A DNA stretch of 62,279 bases, counting the filler, from Globobulimina sp. (Eukaryota): NCBI GenBank assembly GCA_003354225.1. It is 23 parts of 23 records of this genome, joined end to end, with 100 filler letters (N's around TTAATTAATTAA, not from the genome) between each part and the next. Parts side by side here need not be neighbours in the genome. Positions count along the whole stretch, not along the records: positions 29,847 to 32,458 come from PIVH01005726.1; 22 more parts are not named here. One strand, given 5' to 3'. Below, one piece after another: positions 6,219-32,458 of the stretch. Numbering within the stretch: position 1 is the first letter of the stretch; each line of letters begins with the position of its first letter. The notes under the pieces were generated by a model, which saw nothing but the letters and a program-made list of their open reading frames with translations, was not told the origin of the DNA and did no database searches. The position numbers were made by a program, and so were the translations under genes.

Positions 6219-7313
6219 TTATTTTTGTGTATTTATTTTATGATTCGGTTTATAAAAGCTAGTTTGTGTCAATATCTCAATTTTTTGGTTTCCAATAATA
6301 TCATTATTATTTACTATCAATGGCCAAACATAGTACAGAATTCGTGGACATTTCATATTTGATCCGGAGACTCTTAAATGTATATCTTGATTAAATTGAC
6401 GATTTTGTATTTCATCAACTCTCCAAAATGAAGGGTAAAATTTTAAATCTGATAAAAGCATCACCCAACAAAAATTACAACATTTATTGATAAATCGCAT
6501 AATTTCAACAATCTCTTCGCTCTCTGATGCCAAATTAAATATATTTAATGCAATCTCTTTATGATAATATTCATTGCAATGCGCTTTTAAAGCACATAAA
6601 ATATCCAATGCTATGTCCTCATTGTTGTTGTCCTTTTGTTTATATCCTTTTTTTTTGGTAGAATTATATGTTTGCATTAAAATATTAAACATGAGTTCAT
6701 GGCAAATCTGATTTGAATAAAATTTATTATATTTATATTTATTTTGAATGAAAGTTTTCAAAACATTTATAGTTTGCGTATATATGTCATCTCTGATATC
6801 GTGAAACATCCATAATGTCTCTTGAAATAACGGTGTTTGTTTTTTATTCATTTTATTCAGTTCATCTAATTTAAGTATTAATTTTTTGCATTGTTCCCGA
6901 TATGGTAATAATGCTTTGATTGTATCATCTTTTCGAGAAATAACATTTTTTAATCGATTTATTTCATTTTTATTGGAGGTTTGTGTATGTTTTAACGTGT
7001 TATAACATTCTTGAACGTGTTGATTTTCATTATGAAGTTCTTTTATTTTTTTTCTGGTTTGATTTGCTAATTTATGTTCATTTAATGTTAATAAATTATT
7101 TCTTTCTTCTAATTCTTGCTTTTCATGTTTTAATTCTTCATTTTTACGGCGTAATTTACCATTTGCGATCTGTAGTTTGTTACATTTTAAATTCTTTTCG
7201 CGTAAAATCCGTCTTAAATGTCTTATTTCGTCCTGGGGGTTGGTCAAATGAGAATGTTGTCGTAACAGATAGGCTTCCGGTTCAATTGTGTCACCAAGAC
7301 ATTTAAAATTCAT
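6219..7313 (-). CDS. Coiled-coil protein with Mieap/SPATA18-like C-terminal domain
   Basis: Long heptad-rich N-terminus. C-terminal FINKCCNFCWVMLL...FNQDIH...GS...ILYYVWPLI resembles the Mieap C-terminal domain. Confidence 0.55.
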   Translation of the reverse strand: MNFKCLGDTIEPEAYLLRQHSHLTNPQDEIRHLRRILREKNLKCNKLQIANGKLRRKNEELKHEKQELEERNNLLTLNEHKLANQTRKKIKELHNENQHVQECYNTLKHTQTSNKNEINRLKNVISRKDDTIKALLPYREQCKKLILKLDELNKMNKKQTPLFQETLWMFHDIRDDIYTQTINVLKTFIQNKYKYNKFYSNQICHELMFNILMQTYNSTKKKGYKQKDNNNEDIALDILCALKAHCNEYYHKEIALNIFNLASESEEIVEIMRFINKCCNFCWVMLLSDLKFYPSFWRVDEIQNRQFNQDIHLRVSGSNMKCPRILYYVWPLIVNNNDIIGNQKIEILTQTSFYKPNHKINTQK

Positions 7314-11283: not shown

Positions 11284-12930
11284 TTAGATATAAGCATCCT
11301 CGTATGGAATAGCATGGCCTATAACATTTTGCCAACTATCTTGGTTATCTTCCACATATAAATCCATGTAGGTATCTCTTGTTATTAACACCTCACATTC
11401 ATCACTGAATTTACTTATCCACGATACGTCTGCACAAACAATACCGCCTCTACTTTTTCTTTCCATTTCAATTATCATTCCACCGTTGTTATTCTTTTTA
11501 TCATTATTCATATATTTGATTGCAACATCCCTTTTCCATGATGCACTTACAAATGTTTTAAATATTCCTCTTTGTTTCTTTTCCACTAAATTTGTTGTTC
11601 GTAAACCTGTATAAATTTTATATTCACCACATTCCTTTATGTGTAATTTGCAAATTGCTGAATCTAAACAATATTCCATCCACTGCCATTTATTTTTAAT
11701 AATAGCATTAGAATTAGGATTAATTGTTTTATTTCTTTGATACTCTGATAAATACCAATTACATTCACATCCCGTATATAATATAATTGCTAACATCTCG
11801 CCACGGTTTAATGGAGAACCTAATGCTTTATGTCGGGAATGATTTATTTTTTCATCCACAATGCGTAATATTCCATATTGTTTTTTATTTTTTATTTTAT
11901 TATTTGTAGTCGTATCATCTTCTGGAATAATTAAGTCATTCTCAAATCCATTTTTTTGCATTTCCGCAATCAATGCATTCAAACAACCATCTTTTTCTGA
12001 CCAACTCCATTTTATTTTAGCCATACTCGGTATTCTCCTCTTATTCATTAAAAATGGTTTGTTCTTTGATGTGATTTCAATCTCTCTATTTCTGGGAGGA
12101 TGTCTATATATTTTCATATGACATCTATCATCCAACCGATTCCCTCCTTTTTGTAACCTTAAATATTTGAAACATTCTTCATCGTATTTCTTATCATCCA
12201 TATATTGACACAATTCTTTGTCATAAATATCTTTGTAATGTGTAAATTCATTTAAATGTTTTAAATATTCCTCTGTGTATTCATAATCTTCTTTTACTTT
12301 CGCAAAAATAGGACATTTCCCACTATTTCTAATATATTGACATGTGATTTGCGTTCCAGCGGCGGATACATCATGTTTTAACTTAACAGATACTGTTAAT
12401 GTGTTATCTTTACTCTTCCACCAATGACAGACACTAAATGTTTGGGGGTAATATTTTTTTTGCATTTCTCGTTCAATTTTCGCTTTTATTTCTTTTGATT
12501 TTGCGATTTGCAGCAAAAGACTGCCAACTGATAAATCAACATTGATTGTGATTTGTGTATTGTTGAAATCAGGGTTACCACCACAAATAACTATAATATT
12601 TGCTACAGCATGAATCTTTGGAGGAGGTATTTGTGCTTTGTTTTTCTTACTTTTCTTATTGGTTTTAGGTTGCATTGTTTTTTTGATTTGATATTGTTTG
12701 TTTTTTGCATCATATTTAAATTTTTTTAAATTGTTAGCCAATGTACTGTTAAATCTGCTTCCTACACAAATCTTGTATTGTTTTGCAGAATAATTAGTTT
12801 TGATATATTCTGAAACTTTCTTTTTTGATGCTTTTCCTGGCAACGAATTTATAGCTTCAGTTATCATTTTGGTCCAACCAGGATGACTCTTTTTTGTTAT
12901 TGCTAAAGCTTCATTTGTTTGCTTAGTCAT
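11284..12930 (-). CDS. Linker-histone(H15)-like + tandem PBZ-like zinc finger + R-S-E-clade ADP-ribosyltransferase domain protein
   Basis: N-term SHPGWTKMITEAINSL..ASKKKVSEYIKTNY, then a Lys-rich linker. Two C..C...H-x5-H motifs (HLNEFTH, HMKIYRHP). C-term LAIILYTG, KIYTGL, FVSASW...VA, ADVSWISKFSDECEVL. Confidence 0.75.
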   Translation of the reverse strand: MTKQTNEALAITKKSHPGWTKMITEAINSLPGKASKKKVSEYIKTNYSAKQYKICVGSRFNSTLANNLKKFKYDAKNKQYQIKKTMQPKTNKKSKKNKAQIPPPKIHAVANIIVICGGNPDFNNTQITINVDLSVGSLLLQIAKSKEIKAKIEREMQKKYYPQTFSVCHWWKSKDNTLTVSVKLKHDVSAAGTQITCQYIRNSGKCPIFAKVKEDYEYTEEYLKHLNEFTHYKDIYDKELCQYMDDKKYDEECFKYLRLQKGGNRLDDRCHMKIYRHPPRNREIEITSKNKPFLMNKRRIPSMAKIKWSWSEKDGCLNALIAEMQKNGFENDLIIPEDDTTTNNKIKNKKQYGILRIVDEKINHSRHKALGSPLNRGEMLAIILYTGCECNWYLSEYQRNKTINPNSNAIIKNKWQWMEYCLDSAICKLHIKECGEYKIYTGLRTTNLVEKKQRGIFKTFVSASWKRDVAIKYMNNDKKNNNGGMIIEMERKSRGGIVCADVSWISKFSDECEVLITRDTYMDLYVEDNQDSWQNVIGHAIPYEDAYI

Positions 12931-12966
12931 GATCAACCCAAGTGATATCAAGAAAACACTTTTTGC

Positions 12967-21710: not shown

Positions 21711-22962
21711 CAATAAATTGTTTGCATTGCGAATGGTTTTTCATATTTAAGCAGGCTTTGATATAAAATGTATTTAATATTTCATTCTCTTTATATATTT
21801 GCCCATTATGTTTGTCATATAATTCCAATGCAAGCTCACTTTTATTATTATTGATGAACACTTTCATCATTGTTCCAATGGAAACATCATTAAACATATT
21901 ATTGTTTGATACTAAAATATTAAATATGTTAAATGCAGATGAAACATCACCAATTTTGCCATAAAAATCCATTAAATTGTTCATAAATGCAATGCAAGGA
22001 ATGTTTCCTGTTTTGATCTCACTCATTTTTGAATGGATTAAATCTTTGCACTGATTGTAATCATAAATATTGCCACAAGCTCGCATAAATAGCATATTTA
22101 AGATATCATTTGTTTCGCCGCATAATTTATAGAATACAATAGCTTTTTCATTCTCTTTGTGCTTTATCAAAAACTTCATCATTAAACCAAGTAAATGCAA
22201 ATTATTCTTCTTCTTATTCTTATTTGTAATATCTGTAAATATATTCAGTATATCTTTGATGTTTATGTCTTTACAAAGCTTTAAATCTGTAAAATTTAGC
22301 AATGCTTTAATAAATAAGTTATTTGCTATTTCATTATCTCTTTTATGTTGTTGTGTATATAAAAGGACGGCTTCATTATTTCTCTCATTATTTATCAAAC
22401 ATTTCATCATAACACCAATAATAAAGATATCTTTCCTATGATTTGGAATTGAGTTAAATACATTTTTTGCTTTTAATAATTGTTGGCAATCGGAATAAAT
22501 CTCAATTAATAATGTTTTACTACGAATACCATCAAAGTCATTGTTATTTGTTAATTGTTGATTTATTTTATTAACAATCGTCATTATTTTATTACAATCT
22601 GTTTGATTGTCTGCCATTATTTGTTTACAACATTTTAATAATATGGTCCATGAAATATTTTCGATTTTAAAGATATCGTCATAAATTTCAAGAATTTTAT
22701 AGCTTTGATTGGAAGCAAAGTAAAATTTTAATAATGTATTCACCACAAAATGATTCTTTTCTATTACATTGAGATTATTATATACTGTCAATATTTTACC
22801 ATTAATATCAAGAATATTGTTTGAGTTTATTTGTTGTGATAAACACTTTATTTCTCGAACTGCGCCATGACTGTCATAACGAGTCTCCAATATTGAGGTT
22901 GCTTTATTACAATATGAATGTTTAAGTGAGCTTGTTGCTGTTTTGCATCTTATTTTAATCAT
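21711..22962 (-). CDS. Pentatricopeptide repeat (PPR) protein, 3' truncated
   Basis: Degenerate ~33-35 aa repeats (NTLLKFY, LLIEIYSDC..AKNVFNSI, MLFMRACGN, NNLMDFYGKIGDVSSAFNIF, YIKACLN). N-terminus is basic and Ser/Thr-rich, presequence-like. Confidence 0.88.
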
Positions 22963-23004
22963 AAAGTTAGAGACATAAGAACGAAAATCTCTTTCCAAAT
23001 CAAC

Positions 23005-24114
23005 ATGTTCAAGAAACGCTACAATGTGGTTGATGATGAAGAAGAAGAGCAGCAACAACAACAGGCGAAAGTACTTAGACATGGTTTTAAATTGATGTTA
23101 TTGTTAATTGTAACCACCATATTATTTGCAACATCGTTCTCATTTGGACTGTTATACGAAGGAAAGAAAGATTCAGAAGATAAGATGGAGGAAAACGATT
23201 CAGAATATTGCGAGTCCGTTACATTTTTGGATGCTATATTATCCTGATGATAAAAATGAATATCAAAAGCATCCATCAGTACAGAAAGCAATGATGTTTT
23301 TTAACACATGCTTTTATTTCGGTGGTGAATTTGACGAAGAAGGGCAGAAACAATCATTTGATCAAATATTGGGTAAAGTTGACTTTGCAAACACAGATTC
23401 AGAATGGACCGACGTATGTAAACTATATTTTATATTTTCAAAACTGTGCTGTAATATTATATTTATATTTTTGTACTGTTTAATTACATAAAGGACGTAA
23501 TTGATGGTTTTCATTCCGCATTGGAGCATTTCTCAAATGTTAATTTTGAGATTTTATTTAAAATCGATGCAGTCAACCAAGGTGTTGTTAAAATAACACA
23601 AACAAAAAATTGGATTATTTATCCTGTTCTAATGCAAGATGTTAGATCTAACGTGTTTTTTAGAAAGTTGGCTGTTTTGGTTGAAGAAACACCACCTTTT
23701 GTGGTACAATCATTTATAATTAATTCTGTTATTTTAAATGATATAATATTTTCTGAGAAACACAAAGCCTATGGATATGCTATGAGGGACGCAAAGTATA
23801 AGAGTTTGGTGTTGATTTAACAGAGGAACAGTTGTTTTTTGTTGGATGGGCACGAGGTACATCCATATTTTATATCATATCCATGTATACAATATATATA
23901 ATTATGTACATCGAGTCGTCCACATTTTGATTCATTGAAAAAAAGTACGTATGTTGAAGGGAGAGAAACCGATCCCGGCGCCTATGACAGCGTACATGCT
24001 CCAAGATATTCGCGAGTCGTTGGACCGTTGCAAAATATGCCTCAATTTTCAGAAGCATTTAATTGTAAAGTTGGATCGATGATGAATCCACAAAATAAAT
24101 GTAAATTATGGTAA
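23005..24114 (+). pseudogene. Neprilysin/M13 peptidase pseudogene (frameshifts, large internal deletion)
   Basis: Type II TM N-terminus; DLTEEQLFFVGWAR; C-terminus HAPRYSRVVGPLQNMPQFSEAFNCKVGSMMNPQNKCKLW*. No HExxH found and the locus is far too short. Confidence 0.8.
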
Positions 24115-25076: not shown

Positions 25077-25991
25077 ATGCTTAAACTAAAACAATTGCTC
25101 TCTTCCCGCTCGCTGTCTTGTAATTCGCGCTGTTTCAACAATGGTATAAAACAAGAGTCAGTGTTGACTGCATCACCTCAATCATTTTCAAAATTGGTTC
25201 AAAATCAAAATAGAAATTGGTCAATACATGAAAAATTGGCATTATGTTCCAGAATATTGGCATTATTTGGTCATGCAAACGATTTGTTAGCTGGTCAAAT
25301 AACAACCAAATGCAGCAATAGTAGTAATTTGGAAATATGGACGCAACCTTTTGGATATGGTTTGGATGAATTAAACAGTAATTCGTTTCTCAAAGTTGAT
25401 ACAGATTTAAATGTTTTGGAAGGTGATCAGAATGAAATGCCAAATCCCGCGAATAATTTCCATTTCCATATTTATAAACATAGAGCAGACATAAATTGCA
25501 TTATTCATTGTCATTCCCCAAATGTTACTGTTTTGGCAATGATGAAAAATATTGAATTAATAATTTCTCATTCGGATGCAATGAGTTTGTATGACGATAT
25601 AACGTATTTATATGAATGGGAAGGTTTGCCCTTTGGTGATAGAGAAGGAATAATTATGGCAAATGCATTGGGTCAGAAATATAATAATATCTTATTGGCA
25701 AATCATGGATATTTATGTGTGGGAGATACAATTGAAAGAGCTTTGTATCGTTCATATTGGATTGAAAAAAGTGCAGAGATTCAATTAAAAGCAATGCAAG
25801 CAGTTGGTGGTGATTTAGATAATGTATGTCATCGGTATTCAGATCGTATTAAACAAGTAAATCAACGATATGCGAGAGATGCAAATCAATTCAAGTTAAC
25901 TGACAGTTTTGTGCAGTTACATTTCAATTATTGGGCAAGAAGAGCAATTTCTAAATATGGTGATGCATTCTTACAAAAACATTGCATATAA
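25077..25991 (+). CDS. Class II aldolase/adducin-family protein with mitochondrial presequence-like N-terminus
   Basis: LALCSRILA..GH..LAGQIT, NPANNFH..IY..R.DINCIIHCHS, ILLANHG (Zn-binding His). No introns. Confidence 0.9.
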   Translation: MLKLKQLLSSRSLSCNSRCFNNGIKQESVLTASPQSFSKLVQNQNRNWSIHEKLALCSRILALFGHANDLLAGQITTKCSNSSNLEIWTQPFGYGLDELNSNSFLKVDTDLNVLEGDQNEMPNPANNFHFHIYKHRADINCIIHCHSPNVTVLAMMKNIELIISHSDAMSLYDDITYLYEWEGLPFGDREGIIMANALGQKYNNILLANHGYLCVGDTIERALYRSYWIEKSAEIQLKAMQAVGGDLDNVCHRYSDRIKQVNQRYARDANQFKLTDSFVQLHFNYWARRAISKYGDAFLQKHCI

Positions 25992-29846: not shown

Positions 29847-32045
29847 TATGGCAAAGAATATTCCATAAATATTTCGAAACTTATATCCAAAGCAAAAACT
29901 ATCACAAAGTTGCAACATATCCACTCTTTGCTGATTATAAAGGATGATATATTTATAAGCACTGCTTTAATAAAACAATATGGTAATTTGAATGATATCG
30001 AATCAGCACTGAATATATTTAATTCAATGCTGTTGACAAAGAGAGATGAAACAATGATCGGTGTCATGCTGCAAACACTGTTAAAGCATGAATGCTACCA
30101 ACAAATGTTAACAATGTATGATTGCTTTGAATATCACAAATTAAATAATGACATTATTAATGCATCAGTGTTGAAAGCATGCATTGAAGCAAATAACTTT
30201 GAAAAAGGACAAGAAATCCATCAACATTTCGCAGCTGTAATCGATTCTGTTTCCATTCAATTAAAAACGTGTTTGATTGGGTTTTATGGACATTTCGGTG
30301 ATATCGATACTGCACAAAAACTATTCAAATCATTTGTGTGCAATAATAATGATATTATAATCGTAAATGCCATGATGACTGTTTTAATCGGCAACAAATA
30401 TTATGAGAATGCACTTTTATTATATGAAGAGACAGCTATGTCCGTAAGGAATATTGTTACGTTTATAGTAGCAATAAAAGCGTGTATTATTAATGGTAAT
30501 TTTACAAAAGGAACGCAGATTCATCAGGCAATTGTTGGTAAAGGCTTTGCGGTAAATGATGATTATTATCATTTATTCAATTTATTGATTGACTTTTATG
30601 GAATGTTGGGAGATGACATGAATGCAATGATAAATATTTACAATGAGATGACTGCAAAGAACATAAATGATATATTGAGTGTAGCAAAAGTAATGAAAGG
30701 ATATATAAATAATGGGCTGATTGATGATGCGCTGATATTTTATAATGAGGAATATTTAAAAGTGAGTATAAATGCAAGAAATGCTTCAAATCCGTATATA
30801 TTAAGCACATTGTTTGAAAACTTTAAAAACATTGGACAGACTCGCAATGTTGAGAATATTTTGAATGATAATAAATATTTATCTTCTTCTGCTTCTTCAT
30901 TATTTGACAGCAGAACTTTGGAATTATTGCTTATTTGTATTCATAGAACATCGAAATATTACCAATATCATCACAAACAAGTCGACCAACAACAAACGTT
31001 TCCCTTTCTGTACAAGGTTTGGAATGAAATTGTGAACAAATTGGGAGTTAAACCAGATTTGAATTGTTATTGCATCGCTATTTTAGCATTGTCCAAATAT
31101 AATATAAATAATAAAGAGTGCAATGATATGTTTAATAGCTTAATAAGTGATATTGTAAATGATAATAATATGATAAATGAGTTACAGTTAAAACCAATTG
31201 AATTCCATCGAATATTAAAAGGTTTAGGAAATGCAAATAAATTGAATGAAATGTGGTTAATGTATAATAAGATTATCTCAGAGGTTCATAACAAGCATGA
31301 TATTGTTGCATTGAATATTTTACTGGAATTTGAAAATAGAAATGAAAAAAAACAAAAAATTTTAAATATTATCCATTCACATTCATATTTGTATCAATGT
31401 TGTCTTTGCAAATCTTTTGTTAATAATCAATGTCTCAGAAAAAACAAAGACGAACGGAATAATGAAAATTGTATTGTTGATAATAATGATAAATTCAAAC
31501 ATTTTGATATAAATAACTTGCGATTATATGAAGTGATTACATTATTTTTAAATTGTCAGAATATTGACAGTAACTTACAAGCATATTTATGGGAAATGCT
31601 ACAAAAACCAAATGTAAATGAATCAAAATTAGAAAGTAACATAATTGCTATGTTTAAATTAAATGGAACAGAATGGATTATACAAAATGGTATTTATCAT
31701 AAATGCAGATTTAAATCAATGGATAAAGTGAATGAGTTAATGAAACAAAGTAATTATTCAATTGATAGCTCAGTTTGTATTGGATCTGTTACAAACAGAA
31801 AAACACGAGAAGTGCATTTAAAATATCATGCCGAGAAAAAAGCATTAGCCATTTTGTTGCATGAAATGAAATTAATGAATAATAAGAATAATAATATTGA
31901 TATTTCTGTTGCAATTTCACTCAAAATGTGTAAAGATTGTCATGCATTTTTTGCAGCTATGTCTAAATATTATAATCAAAGTATTACATGTTTTGATTCC
32001 AATGGAAAACATTTATTTTCTCACGGAAAATGCAGTTGTAATTAA
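29847..32045 (+). CDS. PPR protein with C-terminal DYW-type cytidine deaminase domain, 5' truncated
   Basis: PLS-like PPRs (TALIKQYG..DIESALNIF, VLKAC...FEKGQEIH, LIGFYGHFGDIDTAQKLF). C-term HLKYHAEKKALA...ISLKMCKDCHAFF..SK..NQSITCFD..GKHLF.HGKCSCN*. Confidence 0.92.
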   Translation, partial: YGKEYSINISKLISKAKTITKLQHIHSLLIIKDDIFISTALIKQYGNLNDIESALNIFNSMLLTKRDETMIGVMLQTLLKHECYQQMLTMYDCFEYHKLNNDIINASVLKACIEANNFEKGQEIHQHFAAVIDSVSIQLKTCLIGFYGHFGDIDTAQKLFKSFVCNNNDIIIVNAMMTVLIGNKYYENALLLYEETAMSVRNIVTFIVAIKACIINGNFTKGTQIHQAIVGKGFAVNDDYYHLFNLLIDFYGMLGDDMNAMINIYNEMTAKNINDILSVAKVMKGYINNGLIDDALIFYNEEYLKVSINARNASNPYILSTLFENFKNIGQTRNVENILNDNKYLSSSASSLFDSRTLELLLICIHRTSKYYQYHHKQVDQQQTFPFLYKVWNEIVNKLGVKPDLNCYCIAILALSKYNINNKECNDMFNSLISDIVNDNNMINELQLKPIEFHRILKGLGNANKLNEMWLMYNKIISEVHNKHDIVALNILLEFENRNEKKQKILNIIHSHSYLYQCCLCKSFVNNQCLRKNKDERNNENCIVDNNDKFKHFDINNLRLYEVITLFLNCQNIDSNLQAYLWEMLQKPNVNESKLESNIIAMFKLNGTEWIIQNGIYHKCRFKSMDKVNELMKQSNYSIDSSVCIGSVTNRKTREVHLKYHAEKKALAILLHEMKLMNNKNNNIDISVAISLKMCKDCHAFFAAMSKYYNQSITCFDSNGKHLFSHGKCSCN

Positions 32046-32286: not shown

Positions 32287-32458
32287 ATGGCTCTGTCAAC
32301 TGGAATGGTCGTCAGTATGGTGTATGGGTCTTCTCATCTGTTGTTGTTATTCATTTTAAGCATTTACATTTATATTCAATTTCGTCAATCTGCTAAATCG
32401 TCTTTTAAGAATTTTATTCTTGCTTTATGGAAAGAGAGAGGTATTCCATCATTATACA
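32287..32458 (+). CDS. N-terminal fragment of a membrane protein
   Basis: ATG at 32287 and a hydrophobic helix; runs into the contig end. Confidence 0.4.

Follow-up and report, generated by a model that had tools for sequence, protein, structure and literature searches.

Introduction

Pentatricopeptide repeat (PPR) proteins that end in a DYW-family deaminase (PPR-DYW proteins) are, to our knowledge, the only RNA base editors that are at once self-contained and guided by protein, and their engineering into tools is under way. We have studied a gene that almost certainly belongs to this class, encoding a PPR array and a DYW-family deaminase, in a stretch of 62,279 bases of DNA from an assembly of Globobulimina sp. 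(GCA_003354225.1). The whole stretch is called the window below, and the protein is called P0001.

The closest known systems include the PPR-DYW proteins of land plants. In OTP86 the catalytic zinc (Zn1) is bound by H892, C920 and C923, with E894 as the catalytic residue, and a second zinc (Zn2) is bound by H924, H947, C954 and C956; W960 is essential, and K915, a residue found only in DYW domains, forms an ion pair with E894 in the inactive state (PMC7611903). In consPPR-DYW the D and W of the terminal tripeptide stabilize the domain, with the W covering Zn2, while R568, R591, R595, F596 and H598 dock the domain onto the PPR tract (PMC13324415). The serine of the HSE motif has been called inhibitory, and HAE marks the U-to-C type of plant domain, DYW:KP (PMC7611903, PMC9478123).

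Among non-plants, Naegleria, Acrasis and Physarum have established PPR-DYW proteins, and Acanthamoeba, Malawimonas, rotifers and a fungus are listed as having them; in Naegleria and Acrasis the C-to-U editing of mitochondrial RNA has been verified (PMC4202320, PMC4758236). Within Rhizaria, mitochondrial editing of both the C-to-U and the A-to-I kind is massive in the paradinids (PMC11946409, PMC13386178). A survey from 2026 counts 31 DYW domains in Rhizaria, and reports that the PG box and the terminal tripeptide are variable in non-plants (PMC13386178). Our literature searches brought up no paper on PPR or DYW proteins of foraminifera, and no description in print of the short-tailed clade presented below, of which the supplementary tables of the survey may list sequences.

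Results

A 5′-truncated frame encodes a PPR array and a DYW-family deaminase

The window consists of 23 contigs of 2610-2614 bases, joined longest first by linkers of 44 N, TTAATTAATTAA and another 44 N. It is thus an artificial chain, in which gene order across the linkers is meaningless and synteny cannot be read. The gene lies on the contig at 29847-32458. Its coding frame occupies 29847-32042 with a TAA stop at 32043-32045, and runs off the 5′ edge of the contig at 29847. The features of the frame are as follows.

29847..32045, + strand: P0001, 5′-truncated PPR/DYW-like deaminase frame, 732 codons and TAA, open to the contig edge
29847..30761, + strand: PLS-type PPR array, aa 1 to ~305 (Pfam PPR/PPR_2; matches to 9kfx, aa 25-320, and 5iww)
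30762..31637, + strand: PPR-like helical linker, aa ~306-597, ~295 residues (predicted model, structure superposition, clade conservation)
31380..31481, + strand: Cys/His-rich insertion in the linker, aa ~512-545 (shared with the relative P0031)
31638..32042, + strand: DYW-family deaminase, aa 598-732 (PF14432, VIA, Foldseek)
31638..31691, + strand: counterpart of the PG-box β-strands, aa 598-615 (alignment columns)
31827..31835, + strand: H661-A-E663, putative Zn1 ligand and catalytic Glu (alignment)
31929..31943, + strand: C695-K-D-C698-H699, two putative Zn1 ligands and the first Zn2 ligand (alignment, roles from OTP86)
32010..32042, + strand: H722 ... C729-S-C731-N732, remaining putative Zn2 ligands and the protein end (alignment, roles from OTP86)

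At 28% G+C, stops are expected in 9.0% of codons, so that 732 codons free of stops would arise by chance with a probability of about 9e-31; on the opposite strand no open frame exceeds 84 codons. The protein scores 39.9 bits against the Pfam DYW_deaminase family PF14432 (cut-off 24, E = 3.9e-10), and Pfam PPR and PPR_2 are also over their cut-offs. Among solved structures, a phmmer search finds the synthetic PLS-type PPR-DYW protein 9kfx at E = 4.9e-33, in three stretches of which two lie on the PPR array and one on the deaminase. It is followed by the PLS9 designer PPR protein 5iww (8.4e-18), the DYW domain of OTP86 (4.6e-6) and DYW1 (1e-4). P0001 is also collinear with P0031, a full-length relative of 757 aa (38% identity over 634 aa, E = 1e-106).

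A preliminary description of this DNA had placed the frame, the HAE and CKDCH motifs and the terminal pattern H.F..G.CSC-N before TAA at the positions given here. It had also proposed a PLS-like PPR array, a DYW-family deaminase with an intact zinc and catalytic Glu motif and a second zinc pattern, and a protein end lacking the tripeptide. All of these stand: the array through its Pfam, 9kfx and 5iww matches, the deaminase through its PF14432 score, the zinc pattern through the presence of all eight residues, and the missing tripeptide through the ending C-S-C-N-stop, no D-Y-W-like ending being present downstream of the stop in the three forward frames checked.

The deaminase falls into a short-tailed clade tied to foraminifera

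Searching with the whole protein gave 23 proteins at E ≤1e-3. The best matches (8e-117 to 5e-53, about 30-34% identity) are made through the PPR array, with foraminiferal PPR relatives at 8e-117, and plant proteins appear at 3e-17 and weaker. An exhaustive profile-free search with residues 586-732 gave 370 proteins at E ≤1e-3, of which 48 were at ≤1e-10 and 5 at ≤1e-30; a word-indexed search with the deaminase part alone returned one protein among 261 candidates, a figure that reflects the limit of the index and not absence.

We looked up 25 of the matches by exact sequence. Ten carry an organism name, eight being Nonionella stella and two Bolivina argentea (foraminifera, EukProt); within the short-tailed clade defined below, the only organism named is N. 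stella. Three of the nearest fragments, P0028, P0035 and P0041 (69, 52 and 49% identity), have a source labelled 'merc'. We take the two EukProt sets to be transcriptomes and 'merc' to be a transcript catalogue, and if so, close relatives of P0001 are expressed. A contaminant could conceivably be carried under a foraminiferal name in those data sets. We consider it likely that P0001 comes from a foraminifer-type (retarian) protist.

The phylogenetic sample was the best 150 of the 370 matches, of which 99 passed a coverage filter (query position 45 or earlier to 140 or later). Left out before tree building were the near-duplicates P0177 and P0027, P0032 with its frameshifted end, seven near-identical members of the P0099 cluster, and P0045, P0051 and P0052 with aberrant motifs. 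A careful IQ-TREE analysis (LG+C20+F+G4 by PMSF, the posterior mean site frequency method) was made on 88 rows and 148 columns; the tree is unrooted and its bootstrap had not fully settled. P0001 pairs with P0031 (100/92), and these two join P0029, P0030 and P0033 of N. stella in a clade of five (100/97). This lies within a clade of 21 rows (99/89), itself within a short-tailed clade of 42 (98/97). On the other side of the tree are 41 plant-like rows with D-Y-W or x-Y-Y endings (100/97). A quick tree gave the same picture. P0001 is therefore no isolated oddity: it belongs to a divergent DYW clade of considerable size, short-tailed and tied to foraminifera.

The non-plant affinity that had been suggested for the protein is borne out, its nearest relatives being non-plant and those with organism names exclusively foraminiferal. 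A DYW phylogeny had been proposed as well. The tree sets P0001 apart from the 41 plant-like rows, but contains no named row from Naegleria, Acrasis or Physarum for comparison, and no DYW:KP sequence was identified among its rows.

Some further endings were observed among the relatives. The N. stella set (P0011, P0108, P0073 and P0033) has three DYW endings, namely a plant-like x-D/N-Y-Y, a short C-x-C and a short C-x-x-C; a single organism, or else a single data set, thus holds several deaminase lineages. Another DYW-like group (P0083, P0087, P0091, P0098, P0099, P0111 and others) ends in C-S-C-G-x-R-W-R, often with long extensions. Its representatives in the tree, P0091, P0094 and P0099, group together (99/79) outside both main clades, and members of the P0099 cluster are named only 'pentatricopeptide repeat protein'.

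The catalytic and zinc scaffold is complete

We obtained an AlphaFold2 (AF2) model of residues 300-732 from a 31-row alignment, with a mean predicted local distance difference test score (pLDDT) of 82.8. The modelled deaminase superimposes on the DYW domain of OTP86 (7o4f) by VIA with Z = 15.7 and a root-mean-square deviation (rmsd) of 2.9 Å over 122 of 136 residues. The match runs from model residues 299-433 onto OTP86 825-957, i.e., up to residue 957 of 960. DYW1 (7w86) follows at Z = 14.1, and Foldseek likewise finds 7o4e (3.2e-4) and 7w86 (TMt 0.71). The predicted model thus has the deaminase fold with the inserted gating region.

The predicted Zn1 site is complete (H661, C695 and C698, with E663 as catalytic residue), as is the predicted Zn2 site (H699, H722, C729 and C731). 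In the trimmed alignment of 88 domains all eight zinc and catalytic columns are kept in every short-tailed row (42/42) and every plant-like row (41/41), and in the 31-row alignment these residues are invariant or at least 90% conserved. Such retention across the clade is the pattern of an enzyme under selection.

Features important in plants are missing throughout the clade

Does the rest of the domain follow the plant pattern? The protein ends H-L-F-S-H-G-K-C-S-C-N, with a single residue beyond the last Cys and no D-Y-W tripeptide. At the PG box, P0001 has N-I in the P-G columns and W in the His column, and both strands are predicted in the model. The G is found in none of the 42 short-tailed rows, where V takes its place in 34, compared with 27 of the 41 plant-like rows; the P is found in 3/42 and 23/41, respectively. 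An alternative counterpart of the P-G-x-S-W sequence, N-G-T-E-W, was superseded by the register from the multiple alignment and the structure match.

The column of OTP86 K915, which we term the Lys lock, is occupied by I690 in P0001. Lys is absent from it in the short-tailed clade (0/42, the residues being V 32, L 4, T 3, I 2 and A 1) and present in 37/41 plant-like rows. The docking residues R945, F946 and H948 of OTP86 correspond to G, K and L in P0001; Arg in the R945 column is found in all 41 plant-like rows and in none of the short-tailed ones. Between the H and E of the catalytic motif, the short-tailed rows have A (19), S (18) or C (5), and P0001 has A, while 39 of the 41 plant-like rows have S.

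The C terminus varies within the clade. Among the 21 rows of the subclade of P0001, the tail beyond the last Cys is one residue in 11 and at most two in 15; 20 of the 21 have C-x-x-C, and P0001 alone has C-x-C. The sister 21 short-tailed rows comprise 17 with C-x-C, 3 with C-x-x-C and one that could not be parsed. All 41 plant-like rows have C-x-C, with a four-residue tail in 35. From these alignments the C-S-C of P0001 looks like the loss of one residue within a C-x-L-C lineage. The C-S-C-N codons are covered by one contig of run X2 (to 32053) and by depth in run X4, and no difference at them is found among the listed differences.

P0001 carries the traits of the foraminifer-type clade: V or I in the Lys-lock column, no Arg at R945, a short tail and the conserved linker described below. 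The conclusion that emerges from the alignment is that the absence of the D-Y-W, the PG dipeptide, the Lys lock and the PPR-interface Arg is a trait of the clade and not damage. The preliminary description had treated the missing tail as a peculiarity of this one protein, which the tails and the tree contradict. Its statement that there was no clear PG box was right as to the P-G dipeptide, but the PG-box strands do have a degenerate counterpart.

The linker is a PPR-like solenoid

Read by eye, the PPR array consists of three L-S-P triplets, the first L being cut by the contig end, and its S and P motifs have code-type residues T/D, T/D, N/N and N/D at position 5 and the last position. The array is followed by some 295 residues in the position taken by S1-P2-L2-S2-E1-E2 in plant PPR-DYW proteins. 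The preliminary description saw here a long helical spacer. The region is indeed helical, with 17 helices in the AF2 model, mostly at pLDDT >85; it is better described, however, as a conserved PPR-like solenoid than as a spacer. The full model of 433 residues superimposes on the C-terminal portion (S1-P2-L2-S2-E1-E2-DYW) of the PPR-DYW/RNA complex 9kfx_A with Z = 18.0 over 337 residues (model 1-433, chain 257-607), and the linker alone matches PPR10 with Z = 13.1 and an rmsd of 3.3 Å over 201 residues, although VIA scores of this size are only moderately specific for helical repeats. An Atlas feature search with the linker led to PPR clusters at 0.95, which we treat as a lead only. No Pfam E_motif was found between array and deaminase at E values up to 1; its place is held by PPR-like helices in the model superposed on 9kfx. 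The linker is conserved in the clade relatives, and only within the clade.

At aa ~512-545 the linker has an insertion with the approximate pattern H-x-H ... C-C-x-C ... C ... C and a pLDDT of 44-49. It is kept in P0031 and absent from the other clade members, and from its sequence it may be an extra small metal-binding loop.

Pieces of the gene recur in sequencing runs of three studies

Seven runs from three studies contain 5-44% of the sampled words of the stretch. Contigs from four runs cover it in pieces, mostly at 95-100% identity, with some bins uncovered in individual runs. One contig of run X1 reaches 150 nucleotides past the 5′ end of the genomic contig. Another holds a copy of the linker region (30684-31273) that is about 89% similar, with 48 substitutions and 18 gap positions in 590 bases; it represents a paralogue or else a divergent allele from that sample. 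One further feature lies in the 3′ flank.

32300..32441, strand not assigned: repeated element in the 3′ flank (word depth in four runs)

In these four runs, the word depth is 13-144 at 32300-32441 compared with 0-12 over the gene, which marks the 3′ flank as a repeat that is dispersed, or else as an element of very high abundance.

Other genes of the window

A second gene of interest lies on another contig, of similar composition to that of the PPR-DYW gene.

21711..23082, - strand: second PPR gene of the same foraminifer-type family, P0185 (profile search; 3′ end cut by the contig edge)

P0185 matches P0002 of N. stella at E = 7.5e-30; its first 25 residues are strongly hydrophobic. Local profile searches of the 23 contigs found one DYW domain and two PPR genes of the foraminifer-type family, thereby supplying for the window the copy count that had been proposed as a check. 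The presence of this PPR family on two of 23 random short contigs suggests that it has many members.

G+C content is about 27-38% in most contigs. In the first one (1-2614) it reaches 48.5% over the initial 2 kb, and this contig may come from another organism in the assembly; it contains a frame of 524 aa (1041-2614, + strand) with no Pfam match. An AT-rich contig carries an open reading frame (ORF) for a class II aldolase (25077-25991, + strand). All of its named relatives are from bacteria, at about 37-42% identity, and its best match is an NCBI contig of 963 nucleotides (77%); the protist may have a gene of bacterial type here, or the contig is a contaminant. Two ORFs on the minus strand score barely over the Pfam cut-offs, one at 11284-12951 with an NAD:arginine ADP-ribosyltransferase domain (27 bits) and one at 6219-7313 with a mitochondria-eating-protein (MIEAP) domain (29.4 bits). 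An Rfam search at gathering thresholds gave no match.

Discussion

A probable mitochondrial C-to-U editing factor

We favour, with modest confidence, the reading that P0001 is a nuclear-encoded, probably mitochondrial, PPR-guided cytidine deaminase, i.e., a C-to-U editing factor. Its RNA substrate, its organelle, the direction of the reaction and the activity itself are what we infer here. In such a factor the PLS-type repeats would read a single-stranded organellar RNA, most likely mitochondrial, and the PPR-like linker would bring the nucleotide that immediately follows this stretch of RNA into position in the pocket of the deaminase. H661, C695 and C698 would hold the catalytic zinc, with E663 shuttling the proton as C is converted to U, and the second zinc, at H699, H722, C729 and C731, would brace the C-terminal strand. 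The PPR-DYW lineages examined for editing in the available reports, Naegleria and Acrasis (PMC4202320) and the paradinids (PMC11946409), all showed organellar C-to-U changes. The first 35 residues of several full-length relatives are basic and poor in acidic residues (R/K against D/E of 7 to 1, 6 to 0 and 6 to 1, for example); they are compatible with mitochondrial presequences, a hint rather than a test.

Since the plant docking residues, Lys lock, PG dipeptide and D-Y-W cap are lost and the clade has a co-conserved linker of its own, regulation and docking probably differ from those in plants. Conservation of the linker together with the deaminase surface suggests a different but fixed docking geometry, and by analogy with the plant enzymes the loss of the Lys lock together with the Ala of HAE suggests weaker autoinhibition (PMC7611903, PMC9478123).

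A number of observations weigh against an editing function. Replacement by Ala of the D and the W of the tripeptide strongly reduces plant editing (PMC7611903, PMC13324415), so that P0001, which stops one residue past its last Cys, should be severely impaired if its clade has no means of compensation. In its subclade it is the only C-x-C row among 21, an ending that we regard as provisional. The broken CxxC-H or CxC motifs of P0045, P0051 and P0052 show that some family members are degenerate. The N terminus of P0001, needed for a prediction of targeting, lies off the contig. No RNA run is listed for the stretch, X4 being only guessed as RNA. Nor has editing been reported for foraminiferal mitochondria: in the available text of the foraminiferal mitogenome study, which used single-cell DNA only, a cox1 frameshift is described and no base changes are reported (PMC10127745). 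Lastly, Naegleria and Acrasis have 11-12 DYW proteins for two known sites each (PMC4202320), so not every DYW protein need be an editor.

The excess of proteins over sites leads to the most serious alternative, which we nonetheless consider unlikely. P0001 might serve in transcript cleavage, stabilization, splicing or ribosome assembly, with its deaminase-like domain acting as an RNA-binding, nuclease or structural module; cleavage or splicing is listed as possible by the authors of that protist study (PMC4202320). The short-tailed clade lacks the D-Y-W cap, the Lys lock (K in 0/42) and the docking residues (R945 in 0/42), all of which matter for plant editing. Yet the catalytic Glu and all the zinc ligands are kept in 42 of 42 rows, and this is hard to explain without catalysis. 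If catalysis is accepted, its direction might be reversed. Improbable, though with some points in its favour, is the proposal that P0001 is a U-to-C or bidirectional editor as suggested for plant DYW:KP proteins. The preliminary description had hinted at this from the variant tail and HAE only. P0001 and 19 of the 42 short-tailed rows do have HAE, where 39 of the 41 plant-like rows have Ser, and among plant domains only those of the DYW:KP type have Ala here, a change from HAE to HSE lowering the U-to-C activity (PMC9478123). The PG box and the tail, the other two regions that distinguish KP from PG domains, deviate in P0001 as well. Foraminiferal mitochondrial contigs are also much lower in G+C than nuclear ones (PMC10127745), and restoring C might be useful there. 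On the other hand, there is no K-P at the PG-box position, where P0001 has N-I and 34 of 42 rows have V in place of the G, and the clade mixes HAE (19), HSE (18) and HCE (5). HAE is, moreover, a common motif of many unrelated cytidine and adenosine deaminases.

Action on DNA or on non-organellar RNA, in defence, mutagenesis or a toxin-like role, is very improbable. The predicted fold does also match a bacterial type VI secretion cytidine deaminase toxin (Z = 12.5), and the plant autoinhibitory Lys is absent; but the toxin scores below the DYW matches (Z of 14-16), the domain is fused to a long PPR array, a binder of single-stranded RNA in every solved case listed, and the 2.6-kb contig has no readable secretion or immunity context. 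Least credible, and already largely refuted, is a decaying pseudogene, an assembly artefact or a contaminant from a plant or rotifer. The contig is short and of low coverage, its C-x-C differs from 20 of 21 subclade relatives, and the assembly includes at least one contig of other composition (48.5% G+C). Nevertheless the frame of 732 codons is intact, pieces of it recur at 95-100% identity in run contigs of three studies, and a further contig of similar composition carries another gene of this PPR family. Identity between the domain and plant-type proteins is a mere 20-30%, and it falls outside the plant-like clade.

The C-to-U editing factor that we favour can be extended to a bolder proposal, which we regard as speculative and on present grounds doubtful. 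The clade would be a large and old family of PPR-guided deaminases of foraminifera and their relatives, ungated or differently regulated and not simply a recent import from plants, that may drive a so far unseen editing of very AT-rich mitochondrial transcripts. With HAE in about half of the clade, its action could perhaps include U-to-C besides C-to-U changes.

Significance and comparison with known systems

The clade keeps the full catalytic and zinc scaffold (42/42) while lacking the PG dipeptide, the docking Arg, the Lys lock and the D-Y-W cap, all four of which mutagenesis has shown to matter in plants. Nature has thus provided an experiment on which parts are essential and how the enzyme is gated. 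The main value of P0001 is as a natural 'minimal' DYW deaminase, and as the basis of a prediction: that foraminiferal mitochondria, whose genomes were first described from DNA only, edit their transcripts. The clade also bears on whether all non-plant DYW domains derive from land plants.

With the land-plant proteins of the DYW:PG type (OTP86, DYW1 and consPPR-DYW; structures 7o4e/7o4f, 7w86 and 9kfx), P0001 shares a PLS array, helical repeats and a C-terminal deaminase, the HxE...CxxC motif with its catalytic Glu, the second zinc site H...H...CxC and, in the model, the inserted gating region and the predicted fold. It differs in lacking the P-G, the Lys lock and R945/F946/H948, in having HAE for HSE, in a tail of one residue compared with four in 35 of 41 plant-like rows, and in a linker of about 295 aa that is conserved in its clade only. 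With plant DYW:KP proteins it has in common HAE and a deviation from DYW:PG in the PG box and the C-terminal triplet (PMC9478123), but N-I stands where a K-P box would be, and by this box P0001 would not fall in the KP class.

The PPR-DYW proteins of Naegleria gruberi, Acrasis kona and Physarum polycephalum resemble P0001 as a non-plant nuclear family with lineage-specific expansion (PMC4202320, PMC4758236). Compared by their published descriptions, these proteins differ from its clade in having an E/E+/DYW extension and, in Acrasis, a PG box. The paradinids (Ascetosporea, Rhizaria) are of the same supergroup and likewise have DYW-type deaminases on PPR proteins; their domains are reported to group with fungal ones and to share a two-residue deletion. 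Some of the 31 rhizarian domains of the 2026 survey may be members of the clade of P0001. DYW domains in Rhizaria were thus already known from that survey, and P0001 is a short-tailed variant of them.

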